DNA of 64,000 nt, taken from NCBI RefSeq assembly GCF_056712565.1, contig NZ_CM160072.1; one strand, given 5' to 3'. Each line of letters begins with the position of its first letter. The first letter of the stretch is position 1. The position numbers were made by a program, and so were the translations under genes. Of this stretch, positions 22,611-44,713 are shown one piece after another. The notes under the pieces are model-generated. The model was not told where the DNA came from and searched no databases. It was given only the letters and a program-made list of their open reading frames with translations.

Positions 22611-24149
22611 TTATTCTGAAGCGAGAAATTTGTCGAGATAAGGTACAACATAAGGAACAGAAGTCTGGAATATACCATTTTCAATCCAGTAAAGGGTGTT
22701 TGCCCCTGGGCGTAAATTAAAGGCGGTGAGATATGCATCAGCTGCTTCCCGGTTCATCCCCTTCATTTCATAAACCTTGCCAAGCAACACATAATTTAGC
22801 CAGGACATTTCAAGATCAATGCCGGTATTTATCGCCTGATAAGACTCATCTGTTTTACCTTTTACCAGGGCACTGACCGCTTTTATTTGATATATAATGG
22901 ACAGGTTGTTCAATTCCGGCAGTGTAACAATGTTATCTATTTCTGTGTTCAGTGCTGCTAATTGTTTTTCGTCTAAAGGATGTTGAGAATGGCGCACGAT
23001 ATCAACTAATGCTTTTTCTGCTCTCGCGTAGGTAAATTCTGGGGATGATTGAACAATCTCACCTAATAATTCACTGGCACGATCCAATGATTTATCATCA
23101 CCATGCAGTAAATAATCATGTGCCTGATAAAAATTAGTTAATAACGCACCACGATGCGGCAAAATTTGCTGGAGCATCTCCTGCATTCGTTGTGGCCACG
23201 GTTGGTTTAACGCTTTTGATAAACTCTGGAGCAAATCATTTTGAATCGCCAGCTGATTACCGTTAGTGATGACATAACGTTTATCCAGCATGGTTGAACC
23301 ATCTGCATTGTCTACCAATTTTACCGACATAAAGCATTGTTGAGCACGGTATTGGCGCTGATTAACAAACGCAATAGATAATGTTTTACCGGAACTGCTC
23401 GGTTCATCAATGTTGTAGTTGATTTTGTCATGCACCATAAAGGTGGAGAAGGTGTTAAGTGATGTCGCCACCAAATCACCCACGCCTATCGCGTAAGAGA
23501 GCTGATACGGAGAACTCCAGCTGTTACAACTCTTATTAACCATATTAATGTCAATATCGCGTGGATTGAGCAAAATGCGCGATTTACTCATAGGAAGACG
23601 TGTTTCAAGACTTGAAAACGCTACCAGTGCGACACAGATACCTAACGACAACAGGAAAAAAAACCATACCCAAAAGGTAGTGAATCGTTTGCTTTTAACT
23701 GGGGATTGTTCAGGTGGCGTTGTGGTGTTTTGAATGTTAAGACTGTGGGAGGGAGAATCTGTGGCAGGAACCGCCTCTGGTATAGGGGGAGGCGAAGATA
23801 GCATTATTTCCTCTCCCTCTTCTTCGCTGTACCAGATAACCGGCACCATTAATTTATAGCCGCGCTTTGGTACAGTAGCGATATAGACAGGACTATCTTC
23901 ATCATTATCTTTTAATGACTTACGTAGTTCTGAGATACTCTGCGTCACAACGTGATTGGTGACAATACTTCTCTTCCAGACATTATCGATAAGTTCATCC
24001 CTGCTAAGTACTTCGCCACTGTGTTGAGCAAAGAAAACCAGAAGATCGATTAATCTCGGCTCAAGGGTAAGTTGACGCCCATTGCGGCTAATTTGGTTTA
24101 TGGACGGAGTAACAAGCCATTCGCCAACGCGAACTACAGGTTGTTGCAT
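22611..24149 (-). CDS. cadC: ToxR-like membrane-integrated transcriptional activator of cadBA
   Basis: 512-aa ORF, N-terminal winged-helix domain, central TM segment (FTTFWVWFFFLLSLGICVALVAF), periplasmic sensor. Confidence 0.95.
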   Translation of the reverse strand: MQQPVVRVGEWLVTPSINQISRNGRQLTLEPRLIDLLVFFAQHSGEVLSRDELIDNVWKRSIVTNHVVTQSISELRKSLKDNDEDSPVYIATVPKRGYKLMVPVIWYSEEEGEEIMLSSPPPIPEAVPATDSPSHSLNIQNTTTPPEQSPVKSKRFTTFWVWFFFLLSLGICVALVAFSSLETRLPMSKSRILLNPRDIDINMVNKSCNSWSSPYQLSYAIGVGDLVATSLNTFSTFMVHDKINYNIDEPSSSGKTLSIAFVNQRQYRAQQCFMSVKLVDNADGSTMLDKRYVITNGNQLAIQNDLLQSLSKALNQPWPQRMQEMLQQILPHRGALLTNFYQAHDYLLHGDDKSLDRASELLGEIVQSSPEFTYARAEKALVDIVRHSQHPLDEKQLAALNTEIDNIVTLPELNNLSIIYQIKAVSALVKGKTDESYQAINTGIDLEMSWLNYVLLGKVYEMKGMNREAADAYLTAFNLRPGANTLYWIENGIFQTSVPYVVPYLDKFLASE

Positions 24150-24730
24150 AATAGAAACTCATTCGAAAAGGGAATGATGCAATGATAATTGCCATAACCT
24201 ATTTTTTCCATCTATAGATGGGTTTATTTACATATTATTGGTGAATGTAGGACGTTATTTTTACCCGCCATAAACTTCTTGATTACATAGTATTACGAAA
24301 GGATTTTACTGAGAACCAGAAGTAATTTTCCTTACCATCAAAATTCATCATCTTTGCCAAAGAAAAATGTTCAGAAAATAATCCATGAAAAATTGTCCGG
24401 AGCGCTTACTATTTTAATGGATTGTTAGTCTTTGCATGAGCAAACGGACTGATACATTTCTCTTTGTTCTCATTCAGAAAATCTCATCAGTTGGCGTTCT
24501 GCCCGATGTTGTGCTTTATGGGTGCGTTACGCTCCTGATGACGTCATTTGACGTTCAACAGCATCACGGGGCCGCACGACATTTCACGTCAGTCAGCGCT
24601 ATAGCTCAGAAACAAATTTTCCCGAATTGGGATATGCCCGCAAATTGCTGGTGATGTGGGGAGAATCTGGTTGAGTTCGGTAGAATTGATTTGGCGGCAG
24701 GACGCTTAAATCGTGGCGTCCTGAAACGAA

Positions 24731-24765: not shown

Positions 24766-24787
24766 TGGTGCCGGACTCGGAATCGAA
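24766..24787 (-). repeat. pheU: 22-nt copy of the tRNA-Phe 3' end (island attachment-site direct repeat); not an intact tRNA
   Basis: tggtgccggactcggaatcgaa equals the reverse complement of the tRNA-Phe 3' end TTCGATTCCGAGTCCGGGCACCA with one C missing; homology stops at 24787 and AT-rich foreign DNA follows. Confidence 0.7.
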
Positions 24788-24939
24788 TATTTTATTTATC
24801 ATATTGATATTGATGTGATTTATTTGGTTTGGTGAAAAATGTACCCTCTTTTGTACCCTCAGTCCCTTTTGCTGTGAAAAAGGAATCAAACCCGGGAGTT
24901 GGAAGATGAGGTGAAAAGGGGGACGCATAAAGGGATTCA

Positions 24940-24964
24940 CCTTAACAGCGTACTACTGTTAAGG
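24940..24964 (-). terminator. Stem-loop downstream of the island-terminal gene
   Basis: ccttaacag-cgtacta-ctgttaagg perfect 9-bp stem; no clear U-tract. Confidence 0.25.
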
Positions 24965-24980
24965 TGGGAGGACCATCTCA

Positions 24981-25544
24981 TTATCCCCACCGGTCCCATC
25001 TCACCAGGTTGTTGATGATAATTTTATTACTAAATTTGCAGGGCGGCCTGGTTTTGTAATCCCGGCTCAGTCCTCTGAAGGCATTGATCTCCCCCCGCTC
25101 AAACAGCTCATCCTTATTCTGGTGCAGTTGTTTAAATGTGCTCAGAATGTTCGCTTCGCTGATTTCCGGAAAATTATCATATTCCAGTGACCTGAACCCT
25201 GTATCACGTGCCTGTGCATCCATTAAGGAAAACATCCCGGAACGCTGCATCAGGTTACGCCAGATTTCGCGCTCAAGATTCCGGGTAATGGCTTTCATTG
25301 CTGTTTCTGGTTTCTCCATCATCCAGCAACCACAGCGAAAATTCTGTTTCATCGCCCAGTCCGGGGCGGCTTTACCGCCAATATTTTCCGTCAGTGCTGA
25401 GATTTCTGTCAGTTGCCGGATAAGCGTGTCGATTTGCAGTAGTGTACTCTTTCGTACAGCCAGGATGTGTCTGATACTTGTGGAACAGATAACGGCTGTA
25501 TGCCCGTTGACCGCGTTCGGGTGGGGGATTGTGATATCTGACAT
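24981..25544 (-). CDS. Hypothetical protein at the distal end of the CP4-like module
   Basis: 187-aa ORF with coding-like composition in operon orientation with the yeeW-like/cbtA genes; family not recognised. Confidence 0.45.
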   Translation of the reverse strand: MSDITIPHPNAVNGHTAVICSTSIRHILAVRKSTLLQIDTLIRQLTEISALTENIGGKAAPDWAMKQNFRCGCWMMEKPETAMKAITRNLEREIWRNLMQRSGMFSLMDAQARDTGFRSLEYDNFPEISEANILSTFKQLHQNKDELFERGEINAFRGLSRDYKTRPPCKFSNKIIINNLVRWDRWG

Positions 25545-25628
25545 TATGAGGTTTCCTTTCTGTTTATAAACGAAAACGCCAGCCCTGTTCAGGCTGGCGT
25601 CAGGAGAATGGAGTCTGGTGAGTGAGAT

Positions 25629-26051
25629 TCACCGGTTCTGGTGCATAAGTTGCAGTTGGTGCAGGGTACGGATATCCTCCCTGGCCTGTTCAATACAGGG
25701 CAGCAGTGCTGCCGAATCCGTTTTATCCTCATCGTTGTCGAAAATAATTCCGGACCCGCAGTCGATATTGTCCTGCAGCCACGCAATGAGGATATCCAGC
25801 GCTGTTTCAGTGGTTAATGGCATCACGCTCTGTATCACTGTATTGTCTTCCGGCAACTGATGAGGGCTGGCATAAGTTGCCGGTGTTTCGGTAGAGTCAC
25901 GGTCATCCACCACGCGGAGTGAATCACCGTTTTCAGCGGCCTTATTAATCAGTTCAGCGAGATTAACACCATCAATGTCAACGACAATTCGCCCCATATT
26001 CAGTGCCTGTACGTTAACGCTGTCGGCTTCCGGCGTCAGGGAAAGTTTCAT
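25629..26051 (-). CDS. YeeW-like protein encoded downstream of the CbtA toxin
   Basis: 140-aa ORF overlapping the cbtA stop by 4 nt; position equivalent to yeeW in CP4-44. Confidence 0.5.
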   Translation of the reverse strand: MKLSLTPEADSVNVQALNMGRIVVDIDGVNLAELINKAAENGDSLRVVDDRDSTETPATYASPHQLPEDNTVIQSVMPLTTETALDILIAWLQDNIDCGSGIIFDNDEDKTDSAALLPCIEQAREDIRTLHQLQLMHQNR

Positions 26052-26425
26052 TGTTTCACCTCCGGGTGCTTACCCAGGATAATATTATTTACCGTTCTGT
26101 AATTGTCGCGGGTCATCAGGCCGGTCGCCCTGCGAGCCCGGAGGATATCAATACTGTTTATTAACTGAGAACGGGTACAGGCGCTGAATCCCGGCTGGTC
26201 GGTACGTACCAGTGCGTATTTTTCAACGAGAAAGTTCACCGCATCGCACAGTGAAATGCCTGCCTCAATATGCTGCTCAATCACACGTTCATCAGCGAAC
26301 GGTGTGTCATTCAGCGTAAGGCCGTAGTGCTGATCCAGCAGTCGGGTGAGCAGTGTCTGCCAGATTTCAACCGGAGACGGGCGTGAACTGGCCGCCTGCC
26401 CGGGTAATACAGGTAATGTTTTCAT
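26048..26425 (-). CDS. cbtA: CbtA-family toxin (type IV TA; cytoskeleton inhibitor)
   Basis: 125-aa ORF MKTLPVLPGQAASSRPSPVEIWQTLLTRLLDQHYGLTLNDTPFADE..., near-identical to recalled K-12 CbtA/YeeV. Confidence 0.85.
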   Translation of the reverse strand: MKTLPVLPGQAASSRPSPVEIWQTLLTRLLDQHYGLTLNDTPFADERVIEQHIEAGISLCDAVNFLVEKYALVRTDQPGFSACTRSQLINSIDILRARRATGLMTRDNYRTVNNIILGKHPEVKQ

Positions 26426-26513
26426 ACTGAAGATTTTCCTGATATGCAGAGATGAAAAATGGAAAAGTGGCGTGGTGAAAGCACCAGGCCGAGCAGAAGG
26501 TTATTCTGGAGAG

Positions 26514-26882
26514 TTACTTTTTCGTTTCGGGCGTCGGATAAACAGCCATATAAACGTAGCCACAACTGCCGAGGGTGTCGGCTTCGCAGGTCAGCCCTTT
26601 TGCATACAGCGTGACGGTATGCTGATGGCGGGGATTCAGTTCACCGCTGGTGAGCATGAGTTCCAGTTGTTTCATCAGCAGCGGAAAGGCCTGGTCCAGG
26701 TGGTACGAATCCGCGTCGCTGAACCGCCCTCTGATACCGGCGCGGTCGGCAAGGTAATGCAACCGGTTGCCTTCCTGTACCAGACGGGCACCAAAACAGG
26801 GCGTCACGGTGCAGGGCAGTCCCCACCAGGTACGGTCGTTATTGTCGTCGGGAAGCGTTGTCCCGGGGAGTGTGTCTGACAC
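26514..26882 (-). CDS. cbeA: CbeA-family antitoxin (YeeU/YfjZ family)
   Basis: 122-aa ORF MSDTLPGTTLPDDNNDRTWWGLPCTVTPCFGARLVQEGNRLHYLADRAG... Confidence 0.85.
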   Translation of the reverse strand: MSDTLPGTTLPDDNNDRTWWGLPCTVTPCFGARLVQEGNRLHYLADRAGIRGRFSDADSYHLDQAFPLLMKQLELMLTSGELNPRHQHTVTLYAKGLTCEADTLGSCGYVYMAVYPTPETKK

Positions 26883-26961
26883 GATAAAATCCTCACAGAA
26901 AATTGGTTAAGAATGGTCCGGTGGTGGCGATAATTCTGCTCTTCTGAATGCCCTTCCAGAC

Positions 26962-27183
26962 TCAGTTCAGGGTGACGCTCATCAGCCGGACATACGGACC
27001 AAAACTGTCCTTCCGGCGTTCTGCAAACACGGCCAGCACACAGGGAATATCCTGTACTTCACGGCCGGTATATGTATCCGTGCTACCGTGCCAGCGGTAT
27101 TTACCGGTACAGAACGGAAAAAGACGGGATGCAGGATGCTGACGGTGAATACGCATGGCTTCACCACGGGTGATGATTTTCAT
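26962..27183 (-). CDS. yeeT: YeeT/YkfH-like small protein (DUF987)
   Basis: 73-aa ORF in the conserved position between the radC-like and cbeA genes. Confidence 0.65.
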   Translation of the reverse strand: MKIITRGEAMRIHRQHPASRLFPFCTGKYRWHGSTDTYTGREVQDIPCVLAVFAERRKDSFGPYVRLMSVTLN

Positions 27184-27269
27184 GAGAATAGTCCTCCTGA
27201 ATGTGAAAGTAAGAAACAGCTGAGAAAGAGAAACTGAAGTGATATGAAGGTGATTGTGACGGTGACGGG

Positions 27270-27746
27270 TTAAAGCAGACCGTGTTCCGCAAAGGAGAAA
27301 ACCTGGCTGCCACCGACTATCAGATGGTCCGGCACCCGGATATCCACCAGGCCCAGTGCCTGTACCAGACGTTCCGTGATAAGGCGGTCTGCCTTGCTGG
27401 GTGTGACTTCACCGGACGGGTGATTGTGTGCCAGCACCACAGCAGCGGCATTGTGATACAGGGCGCGTTTAATCACTTCCCGGGGATGGACTTCCGTGCG
27501 GTTGATGGTGCCGGTGAAGAGGGTTTCACCGGCAATCAGCTGATTCTGGTTGTTCAGATACAGCACCCGGAACTCTTCCCGCTCCAGTCCCGCCATGTTC
27601 AGAATCAGCCATTCTCGTGCCGCACGGGTGGAGGTGAAGGCCACGCCGGGTTCATGAAGATGGCGGTCCAGGGTTTTCAGGGCCCGTTGAATGAGGCTGC
27701 GCTCACCGGGCGTCATTTCTCCGGGCAGAAAGGAAATCTGTTGCAT
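27270..27746 (-). CDS. yeeS: RadC-like JAB-domain protein (YeeS/YfjY/YkfG family)
   Basis: 158-aa ORF with JAMM motif region ...VVLAHNHPSGEVTPSKADRLITERL... Confidence 0.8.
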   Translation of the reverse strand: MQQISFLPGEMTPGERSLIQRALKTLDRHLHEPGVAFTSTRAAREWLILNMAGLEREEFRVLYLNNQNQLIAGETLFTGTINRTEVHPREVIKRALYHNAAAVVLAHNHPSGEVTPSKADRLITERLVQALGLVDIRVPDHLIVGGSQVFSFAEHGLL

Positions 27747-27760
27747 TGTTCCGGCCCCTT

Positions 27761-28240
27761 TCAGTCAATGATGCGCATAATGGCGCTGCATTCCGGATGC
27801 TGCAGGGCGTAATCCCGCAGCCGGTAATAATGGACCGTCATGGCATAACATTCCGTACGACAGGCATGATGGCTGTACGTCATCAGACAGGCGGCAATAC
27901 CGGCAGCTTCCGGACTCATTTCAGCGCGGTTACCGTTCATGGCATTGAACAGTACCCATGTTTCGTCATCATCGTCATCCGGTTCAGGTGCCATAAATGC
28001 GCCACCGTTGTTCAGGGTGTACAGATTCCAGATGCCCCCGCAGTAGTCTTCGCACAGACGGTCCATCCAGCCGAAGACACGGGGCTCCAGGGTCACCCAC
28101 TGTGGAATGAGGCCAAAATGCTGCGGCCAGAAGCTGATACGTTGTTCATCAGGGACGGGAGTAGCAACCAGTTGGGGCTGGTTATTCCCTGGTGCTGTGG
28201 CTGAAGAAAGAGCAGTTGTGTTCTGAGAAACGATTTTCAT
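27761..28240 (-). CDS. Antirestriction protein (KlcA/ArdB-like; YfjX/YkfF family)
   Basis: ORF track 183 aa; likely start at internal MKIVSQNTT...; acidic DDDDDE stretch and conserved C-terminal half. Confidence 0.65.
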   Translation of the reverse strand: MKIVSQNTTALSSATAPGNNQPQLVATPVPDEQRISFWPQHFGLIPQWVTLEPRVFGWMDRLCEDYCGGIWNLYTLNNGGAFMAPEPDDDDDETWVLFNAMNGNRAEMSPEAAGIAACLMTYSHHACRTECYAMTVHYYRLRDYALQHPECSAIMRIID

Positions 28241-28505
28241 GAGTGAAATCCTTACAATGTGTATAAATGAGAGGAAATAAAGGCCGGGGGCTGACAACAT
28301 CACGTTCATCACTGACCGTGAGACCCGGCAATATCAGGGATGAATGATATTCGGCTGAAATTCCGGACAGCCGTACGCGTAACCGTTCCGGTCACAGACG
28401 GATGGCCAGAAGATGCCATTGCCTGTACTCAGTCTGCACAGACTGAGTTCTCCGGGGCGTCGGGTGATTCTGGTGCCTGAATCACGCCTTCAGGGACAGA
28501 TTGCA

Positions 28506-29324
28506 TCAGCGCAGGCTCTCCAGTAGCGTTTCTGCCATCACCCACAATGCGCGATTGAGCTTAATGCCGGTGTCGATGCTGTGAATGGCACGGGTGTGGA
28601 TACGTTTTCCTCTGGCACTGCGACCGGAAATTCCGCCTTTTAGCATATTCTCCTGGATGGTCTGATAAGTACTCCACAGGTCCTTACCGTAATCCTCCCG
28701 GCGTCGTGGCGTCAGAATGTCGGCGGTGGTGACGGGCTGATGTTCGTCACCATAACGGTAAGTCAGTGCCGCCTGTGCCAGCGCCTGGCGTGTCGGTGGC
28801 GGCAGGACCAGCGACTGCATGGCATCACGCTTCTCCTCTATCCGGTCAAACACGCCCACCACCTCGTAAGCCCCTTCAATAACTTTCTCCACCACATTTC
28901 CCCGGTGTGGAACACGCAATTCTCCCAGAGACTGACCGCAGACCAGTCCATTGGTACAAATGGCACGAAAATATCCGGGTAACATCTGGTAGCTGGATGA
29001 ACCGTCATGGGAGTTGAGCAGAATAATTTCAGGCACATGCTGACCGGTTATCTGTCCGGCCCGCCGCAGACGCAGCATATGTTTGGTATATTCCCGGCGG
29101 CTCTGGTCGCGCACACGGGTCTGGCAGGCGAAGAACGGCTGAAAGCCTTCCCGCTGCAGATTTTCCAGGACGGTGATGGTGGGAATGTACGCATACCGTT
29201 CACTGCGGGAGGTGTGCCGGTCTTCTCCAAAAATACTCGGGACGTGGTACATCAGTTCTTCGCGTGTCAGTGGGCGCTCCCGACGGATCTGATTTACATG
29301 ACCAAAACGACTGGCTAATTGCAT
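28506..29324 (-). CDS. DUF932-family protein (YafZ/YfjQ-like)
   Basis: 272-aa ORF in the conserved CP4-type gene order. Confidence 0.55.
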   Translation of the reverse strand: MQLASRFGHVNQIRRERPLTREELMYHVPSIFGEDRHTSRSERYAYIPTITVLENLQREGFQPFFACQTRVRDQSRREYTKHMLRLRRAGQITGQHVPEIILLNSHDGSSSYQMLPGYFRAICTNGLVCGQSLGELRVPHRGNVVEKVIEGAYEVVGVFDRIEEKRDAMQSLVLPPPTRQALAQAALTYRYGDEHQPVTTADILTPRRREDYGKDLWSTYQTIQENMLKGGISGRSARGKRIHTRAIHSIDTGIKLNRALWVMAETLLESLR

Positions 29325-29413
29325 ACTTTGCTCCTTATGAATGAATTAGCGGTATAAACGAAAAGGCCGCGTCTCCCGGAGAAGACGCGGCCTGATGGAT
29401 GAAATGAAGACGT

Positions 29414-29647
29414 TTATTGCCTGAGAATTCCCTCACTGGCGAGATACGAATTTAGCTGTTTTCCGGCATCAGGTTCAAAATTCCAGCACCGCCAGCGTAG
29501 CTGCCCTTCGGCATTGCGGATAACCAGCCGGAAATGCGTTCCCTGGTCATCTTCAATAAGCACATTGCGGTAAGCTGTTGTGATGACAACCGCCTGTTCG
29601 CGTGAGAAAGGGCCTTCGGGCAATAAAACAGGGCGACAGTCCAACAT
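29414..29647 (-). CDS. Small hypothetical protein of the CP4-like module
   Basis: 77-aa ORF in operon orientation; family not recognised. Confidence 0.35.
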
Positions 29648-29652
29648 ACCGG

Positions 29653-30330
29653 CTATTTTCCGATAAATTCAACGCTGGCGCCGGTGGCATTACCGTCAGC
29701 ACCAACCGTGACGGTCACTTTGTCGTACGCACGGTCTTCAGGATTGAATACTTCAAACTCAACCTTATTGCCTTTTACTTCGTAAGAGCCAAAATCAGCG
29801 GTTTCTGTTGTTTCCTCGTCGTATTTCCGGGCGTATGCCTGTCGGGCAGCCTGCAGTACGGAGTCTTTATTAATAGTGGTCGTCTGTTTCGGGGAAAAAA
29901 CGGCAAGTGATGTGACAAATTTCGGACAGACCTTCAGCATATCACCGCGGGTGAATTCCATTCGTACACCAAATGCCTGTAAAACGGACACATCACGCTC
30001 TGCTATGGAGTGAACGGCTTTTTTGACCATTTCCGACGCCTGTTCGGCTTCCACCTCAACAGCCCTGAATCCCGTCTGCTGATTACACATTTGTGATGTG
30101 GGGATCAGGTTACCGTTAATACTGATACGGCTGCCCAGGAGCGTCTGTACGCCATTCGGGCATCCCTGCATCAGGCCGGTAATACCAATCGTGCCATTTT
30201 TCAGCATTACCAGCGCCTGACCATCTTCCGTCATGGTCTGGCACCAGCCGTTTTTGACAGCCCAGTTACCGGCGGAGGCGGAGAAGGATGCAACAGTGAA
30301 AAGCAGGGGAAAAAGAGTTCTGGTATTCAT
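29653..30330 (-). CDS. Putative secreted protein or lipoprotein (YfjS/YafY-like position)
   Basis: ORF track 261 aa; likely start at [22 protein letters not shown], a signal-peptide-like N-terminus. Confidence 0.4.
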
Positions 30331-30480
30331 GACTGACCTCTGAAATGAACGTACGGTGTTATTGATAATGATGGAAGGTATGCAGTGACTGTTCAGGAAA
30401 TGACGTAATAGCCATATATTTAGTTTTCTGTTCAACATATTGTCTCCATACCTGTCGGGACGGCTTTGGCAGGCCGGCGA

Positions 30481-31161
30481 TCACAGGTTAAAGGTGTTGA
30501 TAAGTTTATGGATGAAAGAGAAATGTGGCAGGGCGGAGATAAAACGCTCTTCAGCGACCAGATTGTGGATGTGGCCTCTCCGTTCAAACCGTTCTGATGT
30601 CAGGCTGACTGATTTGATATCTGCCAGGGGAAAGACCTGCAGTTTTCCCTTCTGTAACGCGATCAGATACCAGCTTCCGCTGTAATAAATGAGCCGGCAG
30701 GGCTCCAGTGACGTATACCATCGCTCAGTCATCAGCGAGATGTGGATACACTGTTTTATTGCCAGGATGAGTTGCGAGAAACACTCGGGGAACGTTGCAG
30801 TGATATCCGGCGCCGGTAGCCAGATAAGGCAGGGAGAGGGCTCCTGGTTGTCGGTAAGACAGGTTATCAGTCGTCCGTTCCGGAGCGGAAGTATCCGTGC
30901 GATCCCGGTATTCTGTATAAAAGAAAGCATTTCAGGGATCGCACACGGGCTGCTCTGTCGTCTGAGGCTGTACCTGCCATTTCTGTACTCTAAATCCAGG
31001 TGAACCAGACGCTGATGAAAATCGCGCTGTAAAGTACGTTCTGTAACGCCAAATTCATCTGACAGTGTCTTTAGTGACAGAGATTCTCCGGCCATCAGTC
31101 GGCTGATAATGAGTGATAAGCGAACCGCCAGACGATCATGCCGGGAACGATCATCAGACAT
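30481..31161 (-). CDS. WYL-domain transcriptional regulator (YfjR-like)
   Basis: 226-aa ORF, N-terminal HTH (LKTLSDEFGVTERTLQRDF) and C-terminal WYL-like region. Confidence 0.65.
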   Translation of the reverse strand: MSDDRSRHDRLAVRLSLIISRLMAGESLSLKTLSDEFGVTERTLQRDFHQRLVHLDLEYRNGRYSLRRQSSPCAIPEMLSFIQNTGIARILPLRNGRLITCLTDNQEPSPCLIWLPAPDITATFPECFSQLILAIKQCIHISLMTERWYTSLEPCRLIYYSGSWYLIALQKGKLQVFPLADIKSVSLTSERFERRGHIHNLVAEERFISALPHFSFIHKLINTFNL

Positions 31162-31363
31162 AGATGTGTACTCCGTAAGAAAACATCTTTTATTTCATGA
31201 TGTTATTATGCCTCATGGTGTTGAAAGGATGTGTCGTATCTGAATAATCAGGAATAAAATGCAGCAGAAAAAATATTCCTTTAATTATCTGATTTTTAAT
31301 GATGATTTCATAAAAAGAAGAATACTCGTTAATCCAGCGACACATCCTGTCGGCGTGAGTGTG

Positions 31364-32248
31364 TCAGAACAGACGATCCCACAGTGTTTCCAGCAGGCGG
31401 ATAATGCGGTCCCGGGCTTTACGCAGAAGCTGTAACATCCAGACCGGAAAAGTGAACCGGGCAACGGCGTCGTCAAAACTTTTCCCGATGGCGTCACCAA
31501 AAGTCTGTTGTGCGTGTTTCTGGGCCTGTTCAGAGCGGTTTTCCCCCCGGATATGTGAATAAACCGCACTGGTTGCCTGCGGTGGCAGGGCGTGGATCAT
31601 CAGCGACACAAACGCCGGAAGATTCCAGCCGACAGGCGCAGCAACGGGGAGTACCGGAAATGATGACGGGAACAGGGTTGCCACCCTGGCTGTAACAGTT
31701 GCCAGTGAGAGTTCCTGGTGACGGGATGGGCATTTTTCTGTGGCATTCCATTCTTCAGCAGGAAACACGCGATCGGCATGGCTGAGAACAAACAGAAAAC
31801 GCGAGGGATCTGCACCTTCATTCAGTAAAAACTGATGCATGGCAATATCGGCAGCATACGCACGTTCATCAGCCCGCAGGATCCAGATAATCAGATCCAG
31901 TTCCGGCAGTAACTGACGGTAAATCTCCCGGTATTCCTGATCATGCTGCGGTGTCTCACCAATGCCGGGCAGATCGACCAGCGTCATTCTGCGTTCACCA
32001 ATCTGCAGGGTGAGGCGATGAGCCTGGCGGGTGCAGCCGTTCAGGGGATGCGTGGCGCAGATACGGGACTGAAAAATGGCATTACACAGACTGCTTTTGC
32101 CGGTGCCGGATTTACCCATAATGCCAATCACGGGCTCGTAATGAATAACACCGTGGAGATGTTCAAGGATTTTCTGGCGAATTTCTTCAGGAAGAAACGT
32201 CAGATATGATTTCACTTGCGCGGAGAGGGAAGAATTGCTGAATGGCAT
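31364..32248 (-). CDS. YeeP/YfjP/YkfA-family GTPase
   Basis: 294-aa ORF with P-loop GIMGKSGTGKSSLCNAIF and DLPG switch motif. Confidence 0.8.
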   Translation of the reverse strand: MPFSNSSLSAQVKSYLTFLPEEIRQKILEHLHGVIHYEPVIGIMGKSGTGKSSLCNAIFQSRICATHPLNGCTRQAHRLTLQIGERRMTLVDLPGIGETPQHDQEYREIYRQLLPELDLIIWILRADERAYAADIAMHQFLLNEGADPSRFLFVLSHADRVFPAEEWNATEKCPSRHQELSLATVTARVATLFPSSFPVLPVAAPVGWNLPAFVSLMIHALPPQATSAVYSHIRGENRSEQAQKHAQQTFGDAIGKSFDDAVARFTFPVWMLQLLRKARDRIIRLLETLWDRLF

Positions 32249-32348
32249 ACCGGTATCCTGTTGATTTCACTGAACCGGATCACACTAATCCGGTTTATCA
32301 TTCAGGTAATATGGGTGTGAAAATTTTTCCATTGACGGGAAGAAGAGT

Positions 32349-33572
32349 ATGGCTAAAAACAAAGGTATCTGTCGGAATAAAAAATGCAGTAATCCTGTTT
32401 CAGAATTTGATGAGGCAAATGCCTTAAGGTTATGCGATGATCATTATAAGCTATGGAAGCGAAATAAAGAGAATCGTCGGGTCAGGAATATTTGTCGTAT
32501 AATTAGTAGATATGACAAAAGTCTGGACTGGGAGATATTTTATAGAGTAAGAGATGCTGCAAAAAATAAAACGGGAAAGAGAATTATTGAGGACGCAAAA
32601 ATATTACACCAATGGCGTGCTTCAAAGCAAGTAAGAAAAAGTTTTCACAAGGGTGTGCTTCGGTCACGGGAATGGCTTAATACACAGGAGTTACTGAGCA
32701 GAAAACATATATCTGTTACAGGTGAACTATTTAAATTTTACATAAAAGATATTATCAGATTATATTGCTATAAGTTTCTCTACAGCAGAGAATATCTTAA
32801 TGAAAACGCATACAAAAAACGATATCAGAGAGATATTCACCCCAGAAAAGTTAATGTTCCGATACTGCAACTTGAAGTTGCATGGATAAATAATAATTGC
32901 CGCTCAAGTGATTCAAGCACTGATATTATTATCCTTCCGAGGATGATAAGAAGAATGGTTGTATTTAATTATACGAAGATAAATAAACAATTAGAGAAAG
33001 TGTTGGGGGGGATAGCACGAAAACAAACCTCAGAAAGGAATAAAGGCGGTCTCTATACCAGAATAAAAAAAGAAAGTGACTTTCTTTCTATGGATAGATT
33101 TATGGTGGAAATAGAAAATATCATAAGACCTGAAAGGTTTCCTACATCAATTTATCCAGTCTTTTCACATTCATTTATTGAACGAGAGCTTCCGCTACTG
33201 AATCTTGCCCGATCACAGTATAAAAGAGCAATAAGTAAAAGAGTGGCGAATTCAATTTTTTATACTTTGCAAAAAACTAACGTGGCATTATGGCTATATC
33301 TTGAAATGTTTGCTCTGGTGGCATTCATTAAACTGTATACAGGAAAAGGTTTTGAATTCATAAAGAACATGTGTGTATTTATCGATTATGAGAAAGGGAT
33401 AATAAAATCCACACATGAAGAACTGCTGGGTGAAATTAAACGTAACATTCAAGTGAATTTGAAGGTGAATCCTGATAATTTTCCAGAGTTAATAGATATA
33501 TACAATTCATGCTTTAGTGAAAATATATTGTCATATGATATTCAGGATGGTAATTTTAAATGGCGCTCATGA
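32349..33572 (+). CDS. Hypothetical 407-aa basic protein with an N-terminal Cys4-type (zinc-ribbon-like) motif; AT-rich foreign gene, family not recognised
   Basis: Uninterrupted 1224-nt ORF in visibly AT-rich DNA, divergent from the GTPase gene; N-terminus CRNKKCSNPVSEF...LCDDHYKLW; Lys/Arg-rich. Confidence 0.6.
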   Translation: MAKNKGICRNKKCSNPVSEFDEANALRLCDDHYKLWKRNKENRRVRNICRIISRYDKSLDWEIFYRVRDAAKNKTGKRIIEDAKILHQWRASKQVRKSFHKGVLRSREWLNTQELLSRKHISVTGELFKFYIKDIIRLYCYKFLYSREYLNENAYKKRYQRDIHPRKVNVPILQLEVAWINNNCRSSDSSTDIIILPRMIRRMVVFNYTKINKQLEKVLGGIARKQTSERNKGGLYTRIKKESDFLSMDRFMVEIENIIRPERFPTSIYPVFSHSFIERELPLLNLARSQYKRAISKRVANSIFYTLQKTNVALWLYLEMFALVAFIKLYTGKGFEFIKNMCVFIDYEKGIIKSTHEELLGEIKRNIQVNLKVNPDNFPELIDIYNSCFSENILSYDIQDGNFKWRS

Positions 33573-35024
33573 TGTGAAAATATTAATTTCACATTACATA
33601 TTAATTATCCACAAAAAACATATAATTAATTTCAATGAGTTACATATAAAAACGTTGATGATTATCCAGCTTAGTATGGTTATGCAATGTGATGCTTAAC
33701 GCTTACAGATAATAACACATTCATATGAGCTATATATCATAATATTCAATAATCATGATATGCTAATCTGATTATGGATAAAAATTACTGAATGACGCCA
33801 TATTATGATTGGCAGTGTTTCCTGTATACGATGACTTATCTCTCCCGCATCATATGGGGGTACGTTTCTTAGGAAAAGTGACGGGGTTACAGAAGCCAAT
33901 TACGATAGTTTGTTGTAGAGTTATCACGAGTTTTTGTTGTTCTGAAGACGGAATCAGAAAAATAATTCCAGAGTAAACATGTCTGTTTTTTGACCAGTAA
34001 AGATCCATGCTGGCCGTGAAAAACTGAAATCAACACTCAGTCTGCATGGATGTCTGAAGATATTGAGAATGTCGGGAATGGTACTATATACGTATTATAC
34101 AGACATATCTTCACTAAGTGTTATACACGCATTTTCATAAACAATTCTACAAGTGTTTTCATTAAGCATTGCTGTACACATTGTTTGATCTGATACACAT
34201 CCAGTTTAGTAAATCTTTACGTTAGCTAAAATCAGTTTAAAGCTGCTACAAAACAATTTTTCTTGTTTAAGTAATCAGGATGATATTCTATTTTTCTGAA
34301 GTTACGTTTAACCTTTTCTTAGTTTTTGTGTTTTTAGTCGTTAACCTGAGACAAGTGTCTTTATGTAAAAACGCAAATCCGGCTGAGATAACCTGGCGTG
34401 ATTTACTGTGTGCTTACGATGATTTTGTTAAATGGTTTTATGGATGATTTTGTAACGATGAGATTGATGAGATGATTAACTGGCCCTGGTGTTTTTTCTC
34501 AGCGCAAGACTCTTTTCAGGAAAAGCGTGATGATTGGTTCTGGTGTTTTGATTCAGATGAGGTTTACGTTATCGATGGTTAACCGTTTTTATGGAGCGTA
34601 GTTAAAAGTAACGTTTTCAGTATAAGAAAATCGATTCTGATGTTGGTGGTTTTTGTTCTTGGGGCGGGGGTGTCTGTAAACAGGTTTTAATCGCGCTGTT
34701 CGGCTCTGTGATTGAGTTGTGTGGTTAAGCTGTAGGTGTGGTGTTGCTGTTGATTTACAGCGCCAGAAAGCGTTCTGATTGCGTTTCTGACGTTTTGTTT
34801 GCGCGTTCTGTTGATCCGTTTCCCTTCAGGCTTTGTAGTTTTTAAAAAACATTTATGCCGTTGTTGTGTGTTTTACTCTGCGTGTAGGTTTATTTTTTCT
34901 TCGTGGGGGATTCATTCTGTTTTAATCAGGAGCCATTGGCGTTGCTCAATGGCGGGATGCCGTAAAGTTTTACCGCAGTGATTAATGATGTGAAGTCAAT
35001 CCAAATCAACGGAGATCTCTCATC

Positions 35025-35756
35025 ATGAATCAACCAATACACAATGCTTACTGGTTATCCCGTTTTGAAAGTATTCTCAACAGTGCCCTGGCGCAACACC
35101 GTGCCGTCTCGTTAATCCGGGTGGATTTACGTTTCCCTGAGTATATGCCTGCCACCATCATGGATACCGATTTAGATTCAGCGGTGATTTCTCGTTTTTT
35201 TGCATCCCTGAAAGCAAAAATTCAGGCTTACCAGCGACATAAACGACGTGCCAACAAGCGTGTGCGTGCAACCACTCTGCGTTATTTCTGGTGTCGGGAG
35301 TTTGGCAAGGAAAAAGGCAGGAAACATTATCACGTGATATTACTGCTCAACAAAGATACCTGGTGCTCGCCAGGGGATTTCACCGTTCCTTCTTCGCTGG
35401 CGACGCTGATCCAACTGGCATGGTGCAGTGCTCTGCATCTCGAGCCCTGGCAGGGTAATGGACTGGTTCATTTTTCCAGGCGGACGCCTTTCCGTAAACC
35501 GACATCATCTGATGCTCGCCCTTCTTCCGATGATACGCCTTTGTCGGGTGGATGTTCTGAAACCAGGAAGGCTTCAGACAAAAAGTCTGGTGGATCCGCT
35601 GTGCTCTGGGTCAAGCGTGGTGATGTGGAAGCGATGCAGAAAGCCCGGAACAGAGCCAGTTATCTCGTGAAATATGAGACGAAGCAGCATGACGGTTCCG
35701 GGCAACGTAATTATGGTTGCAGTCGTGGGGTAGGGCGTCTACTGGATGGCAGGTGA
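35025..35756 (+). CDS. YagK/YfjJ-family protein (inovirus Gp2-like, HUH-type motif HYHVILLL)
   Basis: 243-aa ORF with RVDLRFPEY and HYHVILLL motifs; assignment from recalled family signature and island context. Confidence 0.45.
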   Translation: MNQPIHNAYWLSRFESILNSALAQHRAVSLIRVDLRFPEYMPATIMDTDLDSAVISRFFASLKAKIQAYQRHKRRANKRVRATTLRYFWCREFGKEKGRKHYHVILLLNKDTWCSPGDFTVPSSLATLIQLAWCSALHLEPWQGNGLVHFSRRTPFRKPTSSDARPSSDDTPLSGGCSETRKASDKKSGGSAVLWVKRGDVEAMQKARNRASYLVKYETKQHDGSGQRNYGCSRGVGRLLDGR

Positions 35757-36102
35757 GCCCTGTAAAACGGCATCCGGTACCAGAGTGTATGTCACGGTAA
35801 GGGCGTCAGCCAACGCCCTTAGATCGTTTTCTGCTAATAGCCCTGAAGTCATGAAACGGTATTTTTATCTGCTTCCGCTCCTGGAAACACTCCGTCGGTA
35901 AAAACTTACCGGGATGATTAATGATGTGAACCGAAGTCAACGGAGATCATTCCCCCTGAACCTGCATCCAGTGTTCTTTCCCTTATCTTCCCGTTCTGCT
36001 TCGGTTCTTCACTTATTCCATCAACTCCATCCGCAAACCATAACACGTCAGCTTATTCACGGGCAGGACGCATTGTGGGCTGCGCATAACGGAGCATATC
36101 TT

Positions 36103-36678
36103 ATGAATGCTATCCCTTATTTCGACTATAGCCTGGCCCCCTTCTGGCCATCTTATCAGAACAAAGTCGTCGGCGTCCTTGAGCGTGCGCTGCGTGAGCA
36201 GTCCGGCTCACGGATACGGCGGATCCTGCTTCGTCTGCCGTGTGAATATGACAATACCTTCAACAGCAGAACGACCTGGTTTGGTATGGATTTTATCGAA
36301 ACCGTCAGTGCGCTGATGAATGCAACCCCCGGACGTGATCTCTGCTGGCTCCTGACCCGTCATCCTGAAAAACCGGAATACCACGTGGTGCTGTGCGTCA
36401 GACAGGAGTATTTCGATGGCCCTGAATTGGACCGGTTGATACTGGATGCCTGGAGTAACGTACTGGGCTTCGCGTCACCGGGTGAAGCAAAGCAGTATCA
36501 GAAGCAGATCACCCGGGATGTGGTGCTGGACAGTCGTTCACCGGACTGTGAAAACATCCTCAAAGAGTTGATATGGGCGTTCAGTGATTTCGCCCGCGAT
36601 CGTCGTGGTGTGTGCGATCCGGAAGCCCGTTGCCTCGCCGGTAATCCCGGCTATCCCGGATCTGCAGGACCGTTCTGA
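36103..36678 (+). CDS. Second YagK/YfjJ-like paralog with degenerate HUH motif (EYHVVLCV)
   Basis: ORF track starts at 35914 but the first 63 codons are the conserved upstream motif and low-complexity sequence; Met at 36103 aligns with the paralog-1 N-terminus (RILLRLPCEY vs RVDLRFPEY). Confidence 0.4.
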   Translation: MNAIPYFDYSLAPFWPSYQNKVVGVLERALREQSGSRIRRILLRLPCEYDNTFNSRTTWFGMDFIETVSALMNATPGRDLCWLLTRHPEKPEYHVVLCVRQEYFDGPELDRLILDAWSNVLGFASPGEAKQYQKQITRDVVLDSRSPDCENILKELIWAFSDFARDRRGVCDPEARCLAGNPGYPGSAGPF

Positions 36679-36806
36679 AAGCTCGGTTCAGCATCTTTCC
36701 CTGCATTCGCACAAACTTCATAAATCTCACAAAGGACATTCTGACCATGTTGACCACAACAAGCCACGACAGCGTGTTACTGCGTGCCGACGATCCCCTG
36801 ATCGAC

Positions 36807-36980
36807 ATGAACTACATCACCAGTTTCACCGGTATGACCGATAAATGGTTTTACAAGCTGATCAGTGAAGGTCATTTCCCTAAACCCATCAAACTGGGGC
36901 GCAGCAGCCGCTGGTACAAAAGTGAAGTGGAGCAGTGGATGCAGCAGCGAATTGAGGAATCACGAGGAGCAGCAGCATGA
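36807..36980 (+). CDS. alpA: AlpA-family phage transcriptional regulator (excisionase-like HTH)
   Basis: TDKWFYKLISEGHFPKPIKLGRSSRWYKSEVEQW matches the AlpA signature; ORF track start 36747, internal Met at 36807 preferred. Confidence 0.7.
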   Translation: MNYITSFTGMTDKWFYKLISEGHFPKPIKLGRSSRWYKSEVEQWMQQRIEESRGAAA

Positions 36981-37098
36981 AACGTGTTGCAATACCAGCG
37001 CCGGCATTGCGGAAATCAGCCCTGTCCCCGATGCTGGCGACACTCCCGCTCATCTTTCTGCTGACTCCTCTGGTCTGCCAACTGTTTGTCATCATTTC

Positions 37099-37266
37099 CT
37101 GACTGATTCGTCATTCCCTTCGTCCCGCCAGTCACTGGTGTTTGTATCGTACCGTCCGGTGTTGATGTGCGTTTTCCGTGTGTCTGCACCGGCTTAACAA
37201 AATTCAACAGGGTTTGAAAAGGAACATTTCGTGCAAATAACCGAAGCCTTAATTTCAGAGCCGGGA
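37099..37266. repeat. Copy 1 of a ~150-170 bp repeat (inverted relative to copy 2 at 44502-44651) with a conserved 7-1-7 palindrome
   Basis: Manual alignment to the reverse complement of 44502-44651: blocks ccggctctgaaa, gcttcggttatttgca, tccttttcaaacc, cgccagtNactggcg, gaatgacga shared; roughly 75 percent identity. Confidence 0.6.
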
Positions 37267-37279
37267 GACATCCGGCGTT

Positions 37280-37636
37280 TTGTTCAGCAGGCGCTGGAGT
37301 TCTTTAATCTGCTTCATGGCAGCAGCAAGTTCAGAGGCAGGAACGACCTGTTCTCCTGCGGCCACAGCAGTAAGACTTCCCTCCTGGTATTGCTTGCGCC
37401 AGAGAAATAACTGGCTGGCTGCCACACCGTGTTGCCGGGCAACAAGGGAGACCGTCATTCCCGGTTCAAAGCTCTGCTGAACAATAGCGATCTTTTCCTG
37501 TGTAGTACGCCGTCTGCGTTTCTCCGGTCCTAAGACATCAATCATCTGTTCTCCAATGACTGGTCTAAAAACTAGTATTAAGACTATCACTTAAATAAGT
37601 GATATTGGTTGTCTGGAGATTCTGGGGGCTAGTCTA
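37280..37636 (-). mobile_element. insC: IS2 remnant (left inverted repeat plus 5' part of insC); rest of the element missing
   Basis: Terminal ggttgtctggagattctgggggctagtcta matches the IS2 IRL; minus-strand [56 protein letters not shown]... equals IS2 InsC until homology ends near 37280. Confidence 0.75.
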
Positions 37637-38793
37637 GTTTTAAAGCGCCCCCTGCCGTATCAGAACTGGGGAATGCTACAGGGTTTGACCTGTTCCTCGA
37701 GGATCGTAGCGGAGCTAGCCATGAAAAAATGATCCAGGCCCGAAATCAGCTTCTTGCTGAAGCGGCGAAAAGTCCAGCGTTAAACATGGTTCGTCCTAAC
37801 GGCATGAACGATGAGCCTCAGTTCCAGATTCTGATTGATGACGAGAAAGTTCAGGCGTTTAAACTGAGCATGAGCGACGTCGACAACATAATGTCAGCAG
37901 CCTGGGGTTCGATGTATGTAAATGATTTTAACGATCGTGGACGGGTGAAAAAAGTCTATATTCAGGGCGAACCCGGCTCACGTATATCACCGCAGGATTT
38001 TGATAAATGGTATGTCCGTAACAGTGATGGCGACATGGTTTCCTTTGCCTCTTTTGCAACAGGCAAATGGATTTATGGCTCACCAAAACTGGAGCAATAT
38101 AATGGTATCTCTGCTGTCGAAATCCTGGGGGAACCGGCACCAGGATACAGTTCCGGGGATGCAATGAAAGCAATTGAGGATATTGCGGCAAGACTTCCCG
38201 AAGGTTTCCATATTTCCTGGACAGGTTTGTCTTTTGAGGAACGACTTTCAGGTTCTCAGGCTCCTGCACTATATGCACTTTCACTGTTGATCGTCTTTCT
38301 GTGTCTGGCTGCACTGTATGAAAGCTGGAGCATTCCTTTCTCGGTCATGCTGGTTGTTCCGCTTGGTGTCCTGGGGGCTGTCTGTGCTACTTTGTTGCGC
38401 GGCCTTGGTAACGATGTCTTTTTCCAGGTCGGTTTATTAACAACAATAGGGCTGTCTGCGAAAAATGCCATACTTATCGTGGAGTTTGCTCGTGAATTGC
38501 ATGAGAAAGAAGGACTAAGCATTAAAGAGGCTGCTGTTGAAGCGGCGAGAGTGAGGTTAAGACCGATAATTATGACTTCGCTGGCATTTGTAATGGGGGT
38601 TATCCCACTGGCTGTCTCGACTGGAGCAAGTTCCGGAAGTAAACATGCCATCGGTACTGGTGTGGTTGGAGGGATGATCACTGCTACGATACTGGCAATC
38701 TTTTATATTCCTCTCTTCTATATGTTAATTGCCGGGTTCTTCAGCCGCAGAAATAAGAAATCATCGGATAAGACTGAAGCTGAGCAATCATAA
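37637..38793 (+). pseudogene. RND multidrug efflux pump (AcrB/AcrF-like), C-terminal ~350 residues only; 5' part removed at the IS2 junction
   Basis: [28 protein letters not shown]...[25 protein letters not shown]... aligns with AcrB residues ~690-1049; no N-terminal two thirds. Confidence 0.8.
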
Positions 38794-38892
38794 GCATGAG
38801 TAAATATTCAGGTGCAGTAAACAACATACTGCGCCTGAGTAAATGGCTGTTGGGTTGGTACTAAATGCCCCAGAGATATTTCCTGAAATAAG

Positions 38893-39493
38893 ATGTCAAT
38901 GGAGATTTCAACAGTGGTGCGGCACACAAAATTTGCAGCGGAAGAAACCCGCAAACAAATCCTGGATGTGGCAGAGTTCTGCTTTTGTGAGACGGGCTTT
39001 TCGAAGACGACACTGGAGATGATTGCGGCGCGCGCAGGTTGTACTCGGGGGGCCATATACTGGTATTTCAACGAAAAAAAAGATCTTCTGCGACAAGTCA
39101 TCGAGCGGGTACCACTATCATTATTTGATGAGCTTACAGCCATCAAAAATGGGAGAGTTTTTGAACCGGTTAAAGCGATGTATCGTTGCTTATCACGTAG
39201 CCTGATTAAATTACAATATAATGTACACTTACGGAATGTAATTTATATTGTGTTTTTTTTGTGAAGAATGTCCGGATGATATAAGAATAAATTTCTTACA
39301 AAAAATGGTGGATGTCAATAATTTTGTGAAATTACTATGTTATATTTTCGAAAAAGGTAAGTTATATAGAGAAATATGTTTGGAAATTCGTAGTGAGACT
39401 CTGGCGTTCCTGCTTTTTTCTTTGTTTACGGGGGGGGGCGAAGTTGCATTCTGCAACCTGATAATAAATCCCTTTTCAGAGAGGGTTGCATAG
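38893..39493 (+). pseudogene. TetR-family regulator (AcrR/EnvR-like), apparently frameshifted
   Basis: N-terminal TetR HTH (TTLEMIAARAGCTRGAIYWYFNEKKDLL) in the 38893-39264 ORF; remainder continues in another frame (39248-39493); T8 run at 39253-39260. Confidence 0.55.
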
Positions 39494-39535
39494 TACTGGA
39501 GTTGACCCAATCAACCTTCACAGGCATCGATAAAA

Positions 39536-39881
39536 ATGAACGCTACTATAAAAAACAGCTCTGATATCAATGAGTTTGCTAAATGGATTGATGAAAATCT
39601 TGAGGTAGAACTCTCAATAAATATTGAGGCAAAAAAAGCTGGATATTCAAAATGGTATTTACAGAGATTGTTTAAACATATCATTGGTATTTCTATTGGT
39701 AGGTATATTAATAAATGCAGCAGAAGAACTACGTTCTACTACTGAATCGGTCACGACTATCACTTTTAAATATCAGTTTGATTTTCAGCAGACATTTACA
39801 AGGGCATTTACTCGCCGCTTTGGTATAGCTCCTATTGCATACCGAAAACTCGCTAAGGAAGAAGTGAGATGGAATAGTTAG
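39536..39881 (+). pseudogene. MarA/SoxS-like small AraC-family regulator, split across two frames
   Basis: INEFAKWIDENLEVELSINIEAKKAGYSKWYLQRLFKHIIG in one frame, FDFQQTFTRAFTRRFGIAPIAYRK in the next; together they resemble MarA. Confidence 0.5.
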
Positions 39882-40237
39882 TTATGTAAGCGTTATTTAC
39901 TTAAGCGTGGATATATAAGAATGATATTATCAATATGTTGCTCATGAGTTTTTAATAGCATATAGGCTTGTTAACATAGCCCAGCAATATACTTTGCAGT
40001 GGGAGCAGGTATGCATACAGAACAGTGGGCGAGGACGAGCGTCCCTTTTCGAACAAGGTAGCAAAAGAGGAAGAAGAAAGACAAATACAACTGGGCCTGA
40101 AAGGGTAGTGTTTAAGCCCCCTTTCAGGGGGCCGTGTCAAAGCCGCCCGCTATGCAGATGGTTTTTTACTTTATCTGTTAAGCAAAAAAATGCCGCGATA
40201 AAGAAATTGTTACCGCGGCAGCGTCATAGCAATTTAC

Positions 40238-44501: not shown

Positions 44502-44651
44502 CCGGCTCTGAAAGTAATGCTTCGGTTATTTGCAAGGGATACTCCTTTTCAAACCTTGCTGAACCAGTGCAGATACACAGGGAAACGTATACCAGAACTG
44601 CCACAATACAAACGCCAGTTACTGGCGATACGAATGGAATGACGAGGCAGT
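44502..44651. repeat. Copy 2 of the inverted repeat (see 37099-37266); lies in the upstream region of the PocR kinase operon and abuts the group II intron 3' end
   Basis: Same alignment as copy 1; contains the perfect palindrome cgccagt-t-actggcg. Confidence 0.6.
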
Positions 44652-44713
44652 CTGTCAGAAAGCCCCACATGAACGATCACCACCTACATAGGAGGTGTTT
44701 TAAAATTGATCGA

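Follow-up and report, generated by a model that had tools for sequence, protein, structure and literature searches.

According to Nhu et al. (2024; PMC11537424), the 'yee module' is a recurrent, CP4-44-related module of pheV and Shigella islands, and it is treated there as a genomic-island module, possibly of ancient phage origin. In the K-12 element CP4-57, the integrase gene intA lies at the ssrA end, and an arm running from a GTPase gene to a toxin gene abuts the distal ssrA fragment psaA; genes of the AlpA and YfjJ (Gp2) families are also present. A 64-kb island, PAI-S88-pheU, has been catalogued at pheU in the ST95 strain S88 (PMC7545054). Here we describe a 12.8-kb module with a similar layout, located at positions 24788-37636 of a stretch of 64,000 nucleotides from contig NZ_CM160072.1 (assembly GCF_056712565.1). 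The whole stretch is referred to as the window, and positions are window coordinates unless another genome is named.

The initial annotation of this DNA described the module as a CP4-type prophage remnant that lacks its integrase and is probably immobilised, followed by an IS2 remnant. Our comparison with related genomes indicates instead that the segment 24766-37298 is very probably the conserved attR (tRNA-distal) backbone of a ~63.4-kb P4-integrase-type island in pheU, and not a separate integrase-less prophage. This island is the same as PAI-S88-pheU and is thus an element already known; the main value of the present analysis is one of correction.

The integrase and att cores of the pheU island

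A search with ARAGORN detected no tRNA gene in the window, and pheU was therefore sought in near-identical complete genomes. The window is colinear with positions 4682198-4746197 of E. coli APEC O1 (NC_008563.1), with an identity of 99.97-100% in all three of the pieces compared, and the 12.8-kb module is matched at 100% in many genomes of the B2/ST95 type, among them the type strain ATCC 11775; at least 80% of the module is present in 910 genomes. In APEC O1, the island ends in an uninterrupted open reading frame (ORF) for a tyrosine recombinase of 421 aa, located 198 nt from a full-length tRNA-Phe gene, pheU, beyond which dicD and dsbD follow as in K-12. The recombinase is of the P4 type, matching NCBIfam PRK09692 (E=2.5e-73) and a PHROG integrase family, and it is 97% identical to the integrases of pheV islands and 35% identical to IntA of K-12. 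The same island is present in ATCC 11775, where an integrase with the identical accession (WP_001218869.1) stands beside a full-length pheU. In S88, a left arm with identical gene order and protein accessions lies within the published coordinates of PAI-S88-pheU. Hence S88, APEC O1 and ATCC 11775 carry one element (PAI-S88-pheU, or GI-pheU), whose integrase and cargo are the same in the latter two strains, and we noted no substantive difference between it and the DNA analysed here. The window ends 22.7 kb short of the integrase. The statement that the module lacks its integrase thus holds for 24788-37636 and for the window, where none is encoded, and fails for the island, which has an intact integrase beside pheU in both APEC O1 and ATCC 11775.

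The att core was found exactly twice across the island when up to four errors were allowed, as 23 nt in pheU and as 22 nt at 24766-24787 on the minus strand. This second core, attR, is a copy of the pheU 3' end (TTCGATTCCGAGTCCGG-CACCA) and equals the last 23 nt of tRNA-Phe minus one G; the module starts immediately after it, at 24788. It was recovered by alignment and by an indel-tolerant search, whereas the 1-nt deletion hid it from an ungapped search with the 23-nt pheU 3' end (up to three mismatches), which returned no match. The empty site of K-12 aligns up to the att core, and the island sits at the 3' end of pheU. It thus displays the features of P4-integrase islands in tRNA-Phe genes, namely insertion at the 3' end of a Phe-tRNA gene, an intP4 gene beside the tRNA gene and a flanking direct repeat of 19-23 bp. 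A flanking integrase together with a matching att site, the observation that the initial annotation had itself set against its model, is therefore present in the near-identical genomes.

The attR core is letter-for-letter that of many GI-pheV islands, including those of APEC O1, S88, ED1a and H10407, as given in PMC11537424. Similarity extends beyond the core: over the block 24766-24929, which comprises attR and the last 143 nt of the island, identity to the attR-proximal end of GI-pheV in APEC O1 is 89.7%. The conserved island terminus adjoining attR (24788-24929, minus strand) is presumed to be an arm of the recombination site.

Outside attR, core chromosome makes up the leftmost 24.7 kb of the window, with adiC, melA, dcuB, cadBA and cadC (22611-24149). 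Between cadC and attR we identified, by blastx and tblastn against the pheU integrase, a yjdQ-type integrase scar (24412-24602, minus strand) that joins the first ~11 codons of an integrase of the pheU/pheV type to its residues ~359-420, the C-terminal ~60. From the attR core to cadC, the sequence corresponds base by base to the pheU-cadC interval of K-12, the yjdQ pseudogene included. Because K-12 carries the same interval, the scar is chromosomal and lies outside the island. We also considered that the fragment beside cadC might be the lost integrase of the present island; this was rejected, since K-12 has the same yjdQ without having the island, and the fragment lies outside attR. Both the scar and the att core, which lie just left of the module start, had been left out of the initial annotation. 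An earlier island had thus been acquired and lost at pheU before the present one. The scar is preceded by ~90 nt that are also found between pheU and the live integrase.

The attR-proximal arm and its counterparts

Gene families in the module were assigned with Pfam, and also with NCBIfam, PADLOC and PHROG, and K-12 counterparts were compared by tblastn. From the GTPase gene to attR, all genes lie on the minus strand. The GTPase (31364-32248) is YfjP/YkfA-like (33-35% identical) and is followed by a helix-turn-helix (HTH)-WYL regulator (30481-31161; YfjR-like, 43%), a conserved hypothetical protein of 225 aa without a family match (29653-30330), a YkfF-like DUF905 protein (29414-29647), a DUF932 protein (28506-29324; YfjQ/YafZ-like, 73%) and an antirestriction protein (27761-28240; YfjX/YafX-like, 70%). 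Next come a RadC-like JAB protein (27270-27746; YeeS-like, 99%) and a YeeT-like DUF987 protein (26962-27183). The CbeA/YeeU antitoxin (26514-26882) and the CbtA type IV toxin (26048-26425) are both intact, at 92% and 96% identity to their K-12 namesakes; the two genes are adjacent and their Pfam matches are full-length, as predicted for a type IV toxin-antitoxin pair. The arm ends with the N-terminus of a YeeW-like DUF5983 protein fused in frame to DUF957 (25629-26051; Pfam and RefSeq annotation) and a DUF4942 gene that has lost its 3' half (24984-25544; Pfam profile positions 1-98 of 190). The syntenic set that defines the CP4-type or yee module, comprising the GTPase, DUF932, antirestriction, RadC, DUF987, CbeA and CbtA genes, is thus present, and every family that the initial annotation had named from the CP4-57/CP4-44 set was recovered.

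Among the K-12 elements, CP4-44 is the closest to the toxin-proximal half of this arm: yeeS, yeeT, cbeA and cbtA occur in the same order, followed by a yeeW-like gene, and their products share 92-99% aa identity with the RadC, DUF987, CbeA and CbtA proteins of the window. CP4-44 differs in carrying flu/yeeR and a pseudogenised GTPase gene and in being without DUF932, antirestriction and WYL genes, an annotated integrase and flanking tRNA repeats. The remaining module genes are 33-82% identical to their counterparts in CP4-57 and CP4-6. In CP4-57, the general layout is alike, but the module shows only 33-78% aa identity and the integrases are 35% identical.

A much closer counterpart is GI-pheV of APEC O1, the arm of which is colinear with that of the window from the GTPase gene to DUF4942 at 85-94% nucleotide identity, with the Gp2 gene divergent there too. 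The order in GI-pheV is GTPase, HTH regulator, hypothetical, DUF905, DUF932, antirestriction, RadC, DUF987, CbeA, CbtA, full-length DUF5983, DUF957, full-length DUF4942, an EAL-domain gene and the attR variant. As in the pheU island, a P4-type integrase (97% identical) stands at a Phe-tRNA gene and the attR variant is the same. GI-pheV differs in its location at pheV, in its cargo and in its complete DUF5983, DUF4942 and EAL-domain genes, where the window arm has two deletions. One of these is internal, appears as a gap relative to the GI-pheV arm and produced the DUF5983-DUF957 fusion. The other removed 1.9 kb at the attR-proximal end, including the 3' half of the DUF4942 gene and the EAL-domain gene.

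The AlpA-family operon, the IS2-marked joint and the origin of the module

At the other end of the backbone, the Gp2-family gene (35025-35756), a gene for a conserved hypothetical protein of 191 aa (36103-36678; Pfam and NCBIfam searched) and an AlpA-family gene (36747-36980) form an operon on the plus strand. The AlpA-family product is an HTH protein and putative excisionase or regulator, matching Pfam PF05930 (Phage_AlpA, E=2e-10) and a PHROG family described as 'excisionase and transcriptional regulator'. The 'alpA' of the initial annotation is therefore correct as to family, but the gene is not a close homologue of K-12 alpA, for which tblastn gave no match at 1e-5. A 41-aa hypothetical ORF (36977-37102, plus strand) follows. 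It had been reasoned that intA should be expected beyond alpA, as in CP4-57, where alpA, yfjI and yfjJ are arranged in this order, co-directional with the arm and adjacent to intA. In the pheU island the order is Gp2, hypothetical, alpA, the operon is divergent from the arm, and the integrase is tens of kb away. Owing to this different organisation, the expectation drawn from CP4-57 is not transferable.

To see what follows the alpA-like gene, genomes that contain the Gp2-hypothetical-alpA block at 87-96% identity were used. In none of the three related islands compared does an integrase follow directly. In a pheV island of a pig isolate, two hypothetical genes come after the alpA-like gene, and the integrase is ~9 kb away beside pheV, opposite to alpA as in the island described here. 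Downstream of the alpA-like gene, UPEC957C and FY10 both carry a UCP030791-type gene first and a ProQ/FinO-family gene second; in UPEC957C, an H-NS-like gene comes next, ahead of the cargo. The corresponding segment of the window (37101-37298, plus strand) consists of a backbone spacer and, from 37231, the first ~20 codons of a UCP030791-family gene, the family to which the stub is assigned in the RefSeq annotation of S88. Homology with the UPEC957C backbone stops at ~37298, 68 nt into the UCP030791 gene. This segment corresponds to the 'repeat element' of the initial annotation, which we confirm: a second copy of 37101-37264, inverted and 74% identical, lies at 44502-44652.

The stub is joined to the IS2 remnant (37286-37636, minus strand), and the joint itself (37286-37299) lies in the microhomology AGCAGGCG(C/G)TGGA. 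The truncated IS2 had been recognised correctly. Its 351 nt equal nt 1-351 of K-12 IS2F at 94.9% identity and retain the left inverted repeat and the 5' part of insC, with an orfA fragment 98% identical to InsC at the aa level (tblastn). No other IS2 sequence was found in the window, and with only nt 1-351 of 1331 left, and insD and the right end missing, the remnant cannot transpose. Beyond it, the cargo starts with the C-terminal third of a gene for a resistance-nodulation-division (RND) efflux permease (37648-38793, plus strand; Pfam ACR_tran positions 686-1020), which was interrupted by IS2. The same IS2/RND junction is shared by an ST131-type isolate. The simplest history of the joint has two steps. 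IS2 first inserted into the RND permease gene of the cargo, and a deletion at the microhomology later took the remainder of the IS, the 5' part of the permease gene and all backbone past codon ~20 of the UCP030791-type gene. Thus, the IS2-associated deletion appears to have cut a UCP030791-type gene, and nothing points to an integrase lost there.

These observations bear on a model of tandem accretion, close to that of the initial annotation, in which an older CP4-like element lost its integrase and an internal att site through the IS2-associated deletion, and a later island integrated in front of it. The model accommodates the IS2-marked joint, which truncates the backbone right after the alpA operon, as well as the distance of only 1.2 kb between alpA and intA in K-12 CP4-57. 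It is likewise in keeping with the mosaic nature of the island, its many IS copies and uneven GC content, and with the older integrase scar that K-12 and this genome share at pheU, which shows that integration at the site has recurred. However, no internal att copy was detected between attR and pheU with up to four errors allowed, and no integrase-like sequence other than the intact integrase lies in this interval, the sole other one being the yjdQ scar. The three independent related islands without an integrase after the alpA-like gene, and the organisation of the alpA operon, unlike that of CP4-57, also argue against it. Moreover, GI-pheV of APEC O1 pairs a single tRNA-side integrase with a yee arm at attR, which favours a single backbone. 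We consider tandem accretion improbable.

Still less credible is the view that the module is a true decayed bacteriophage, such as a P4-like satellite or a filamentous phage, and not an island backbone. The naming of the K-12 homologues as 'cryptic prophages', the P4-type integrase and the genes of the AlpA and inovirus-Gp2 families would suit such an origin. Against it, no capsid, tail, packaging or lysis family was found among the ORFs of 24788-37636 in Pfam, or among the subset of these ORFs searched in PHROGs. In addition, the conserved genes (antirestriction, RadC, DUF932 and toxin-antitoxin) are of types that also occur on plasmids and islands, and the treatment of the yee module in PMC11537424, as an island module with a possible ancient phage origin, agrees with this.

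On the interpretation that the module is the attR backbone of the pheU island, the layout from pheU would be the intact integrase, IS-fragmented cargo, the IS2-marked joint, the Gp2-hypothetical-AlpA operon, an orphan gene, the yee module from GTPase to CbtA, the truncated DUF4942 gene, attR, the chromosomal yjdQ scar and cadC. Judging from what is known of the families concerned, the integrase could cut the entire island out at its two att cores (23 and 22 nt), aided by the AlpA-family protein in the role of excisionase or activator, and CbtA/CbeA might serve as an addiction module that penalises island loss. The genes for antirestriction, RadC and DUF932 are similar to early-establishment genes carried by transferred DNA, and they would aid establishment in a new host. 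The Gp2/YagK-type protein, as a putative HUH protein, may act on the excised circle by nicking or replicating it. With an integrase, an AlpA-family gene and both att cores present, the description of the element as probably immobilised is unsupported.

Several points weigh against this interpretation. Neither the integrase gene nor pheU is within the 64-kb window, and both are assigned to its genome from near-identical genomes, at an expected distance of about 50.5 kb to the right of 37636. The attL and attR cores differ by one nucleotide, which could lower the frequency of excision; mismatches between direct repeats can cut deletion frequency by orders of magnitude, according to PMC11537424. 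The one-nucleotide difference is nevertheless the usual attR variant of Phe-tRNA islands. Accessory functions may be missing as well, since 1.9 kb was lost near attR and the backbone beside the alpA operon was deleted, and the role of the AlpA-family gene as the excision factor of this integrase is predicted from family membership.

The absence of an integrase from a 64-kb window is therefore no reason to take a CP4-like block for an orphaned, immobilised prophage. As a rule, large Phe-tRNA islands of E. coli end in such a block on the side away from the tRNA gene, with the integrase at the opposite end. For annotation, the gain is that the attR boundary (24766-24787) and the IS2 deletion joint (37286-37299) are set to the base. 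Since a propanediol microcompartment locus and defence systems are aboard, the ability of the island to excise bears on the spread of these traits among lineages of extraintestinal pathogenic E. coli.

The Gp2-family gene, the orphan gene and the cargo

The Gp2-family protein belongs to the inovirus-Gp2/YagK/YfjJ family, with matches to Pfam PF11726 (YagK_YfjJ_C), to PF23343 and to PHROG replication initiators; the match to Pfam REP_ORF2-G2P has E=3.3e-10. The initial annotation had spoken of YagK-like genes; one such gene is present, at 35025-35756, and it is the only one detectable. In an alignment of seven family members, H101, H103, Y213 and K216 are invariant, and the resulting HxH and YxxK motifs are the signature of HUH rolling-circle nucleases. 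The relatives in K-12 are uncharacterised y-genes. No sequence match to the Gp2 protein was obtained in the PDB, and a literature search for YagK/YfjJ function gave no functional study. A sequence of 56-68 nt is repeated at 34962-35029, upstream of the Gp2 gene, and at 35898-35960, upstream of the gene for the 191-aa protein. This pair, which is kept in four related islands, may represent a shared operator or promoter.

Window positions 35860-35890, which lie between the Gp2 gene and the hypothetical-alpA part of the operon, correspond to a fixed 'cargo slot'. In each of three related islands (L009, L010 and L011), 7.6-10 kb of unrelated cargo occupies the same site, within a few bases between window positions 35871 and 35880 (L009 6402/14001, L010 7460/16001 and L011 5916/16001). 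The cargo comprises pseudouridine/nucleoside genes, a TonB receptor with an ABC transporter, or ireA with IS elements. All three islands have a 567-nt YagK/YfjJ gene whose stop codon marks the end of the insert, and a short GCTTCC-type repeat is found on both sides of the insert in two of the three (L009 and L010). The slot is empty in the window and in a pheV island (L008). By analogy, the pattern resembles one-ended rolling-circle capture of adjacent DNA, as in IS91/ISCR-like elements. That the Gp2/YagK/YfjJ proteins are active HUH nucleases which define a slot for cargo acquisition, or which alternatively nick the excised island for mobilisation, is a speculative proposal that we regard as doubtful.

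Divergent from the GTPase gene is an orphan gene for a protein of 407 aa (32349-33572, plus strand), which is kept beside the GTPase gene in related islands. Together with a 1.45-kb AT-rich stretch that precedes the Gp2 gene and has no annotated gene (33573-35024), it forms a block of 35% GC (32349-35024). The protein had no match in Pfam, NCBIfam, PADLOC or PHROG. Only 16 homologues were found, the named ones being from Escherichia, Citrobacter and Klebsiella, and the AlphaFold model had a predicted local distance difference test (pLDDT) score of 54, too low for a fold search. Residues C8, C13, C29 and H32 are invariant, and the N-terminus is possibly zinc-binding.

The remainder of the island agrees with the initial annotation in that the module lies in a composite, IS-ridden island with many insertions. 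Between the IS2 remnant and the propanediol microcompartment (grp) locus, 37648-39882 is decayed cargo that includes the RND permease third, a short TetR gene and two AraC-family fragments. In APEC O1, the order past the module is the grp locus, fragments of a type VI secretion system, a KAP NTPase, a Qat system, a SLATT/nucleotidyltransferase pair, several IS copies, a decarboxylase/antiporter set, a MarR-family gene and then the integrase. The part outside the window (APEC O1 4745961-4770189) contains genes for the KAP-family NTPase, a hypothetical protein, QatC and QatD of the Qat anti-phage system, and the pair of SLATT and nucleotide-binding-domain genes. It also contains a second Orn/Lys/Arg decarboxylase gene with two antiporter genes, flanked by IS1 copies. 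As a whole, the island is a mosaic of uneven GC content with many IS copies.

A search with Rfam found no RNA family within the module, and the only one in the window was a group II intron at 44709-46406 (minus strand; Rfam domains at 46118-46406 and 44709-44780), located in the grp locus between grpO and grpP. Its reverse-transcriptase/maturase ORF is split. Directly past the 3' end of the intron lies the inverted copy of the spacer and first UCP030791-type codons (44502-44652), and the intron may have brought part of its earlier flanking DNA with it.

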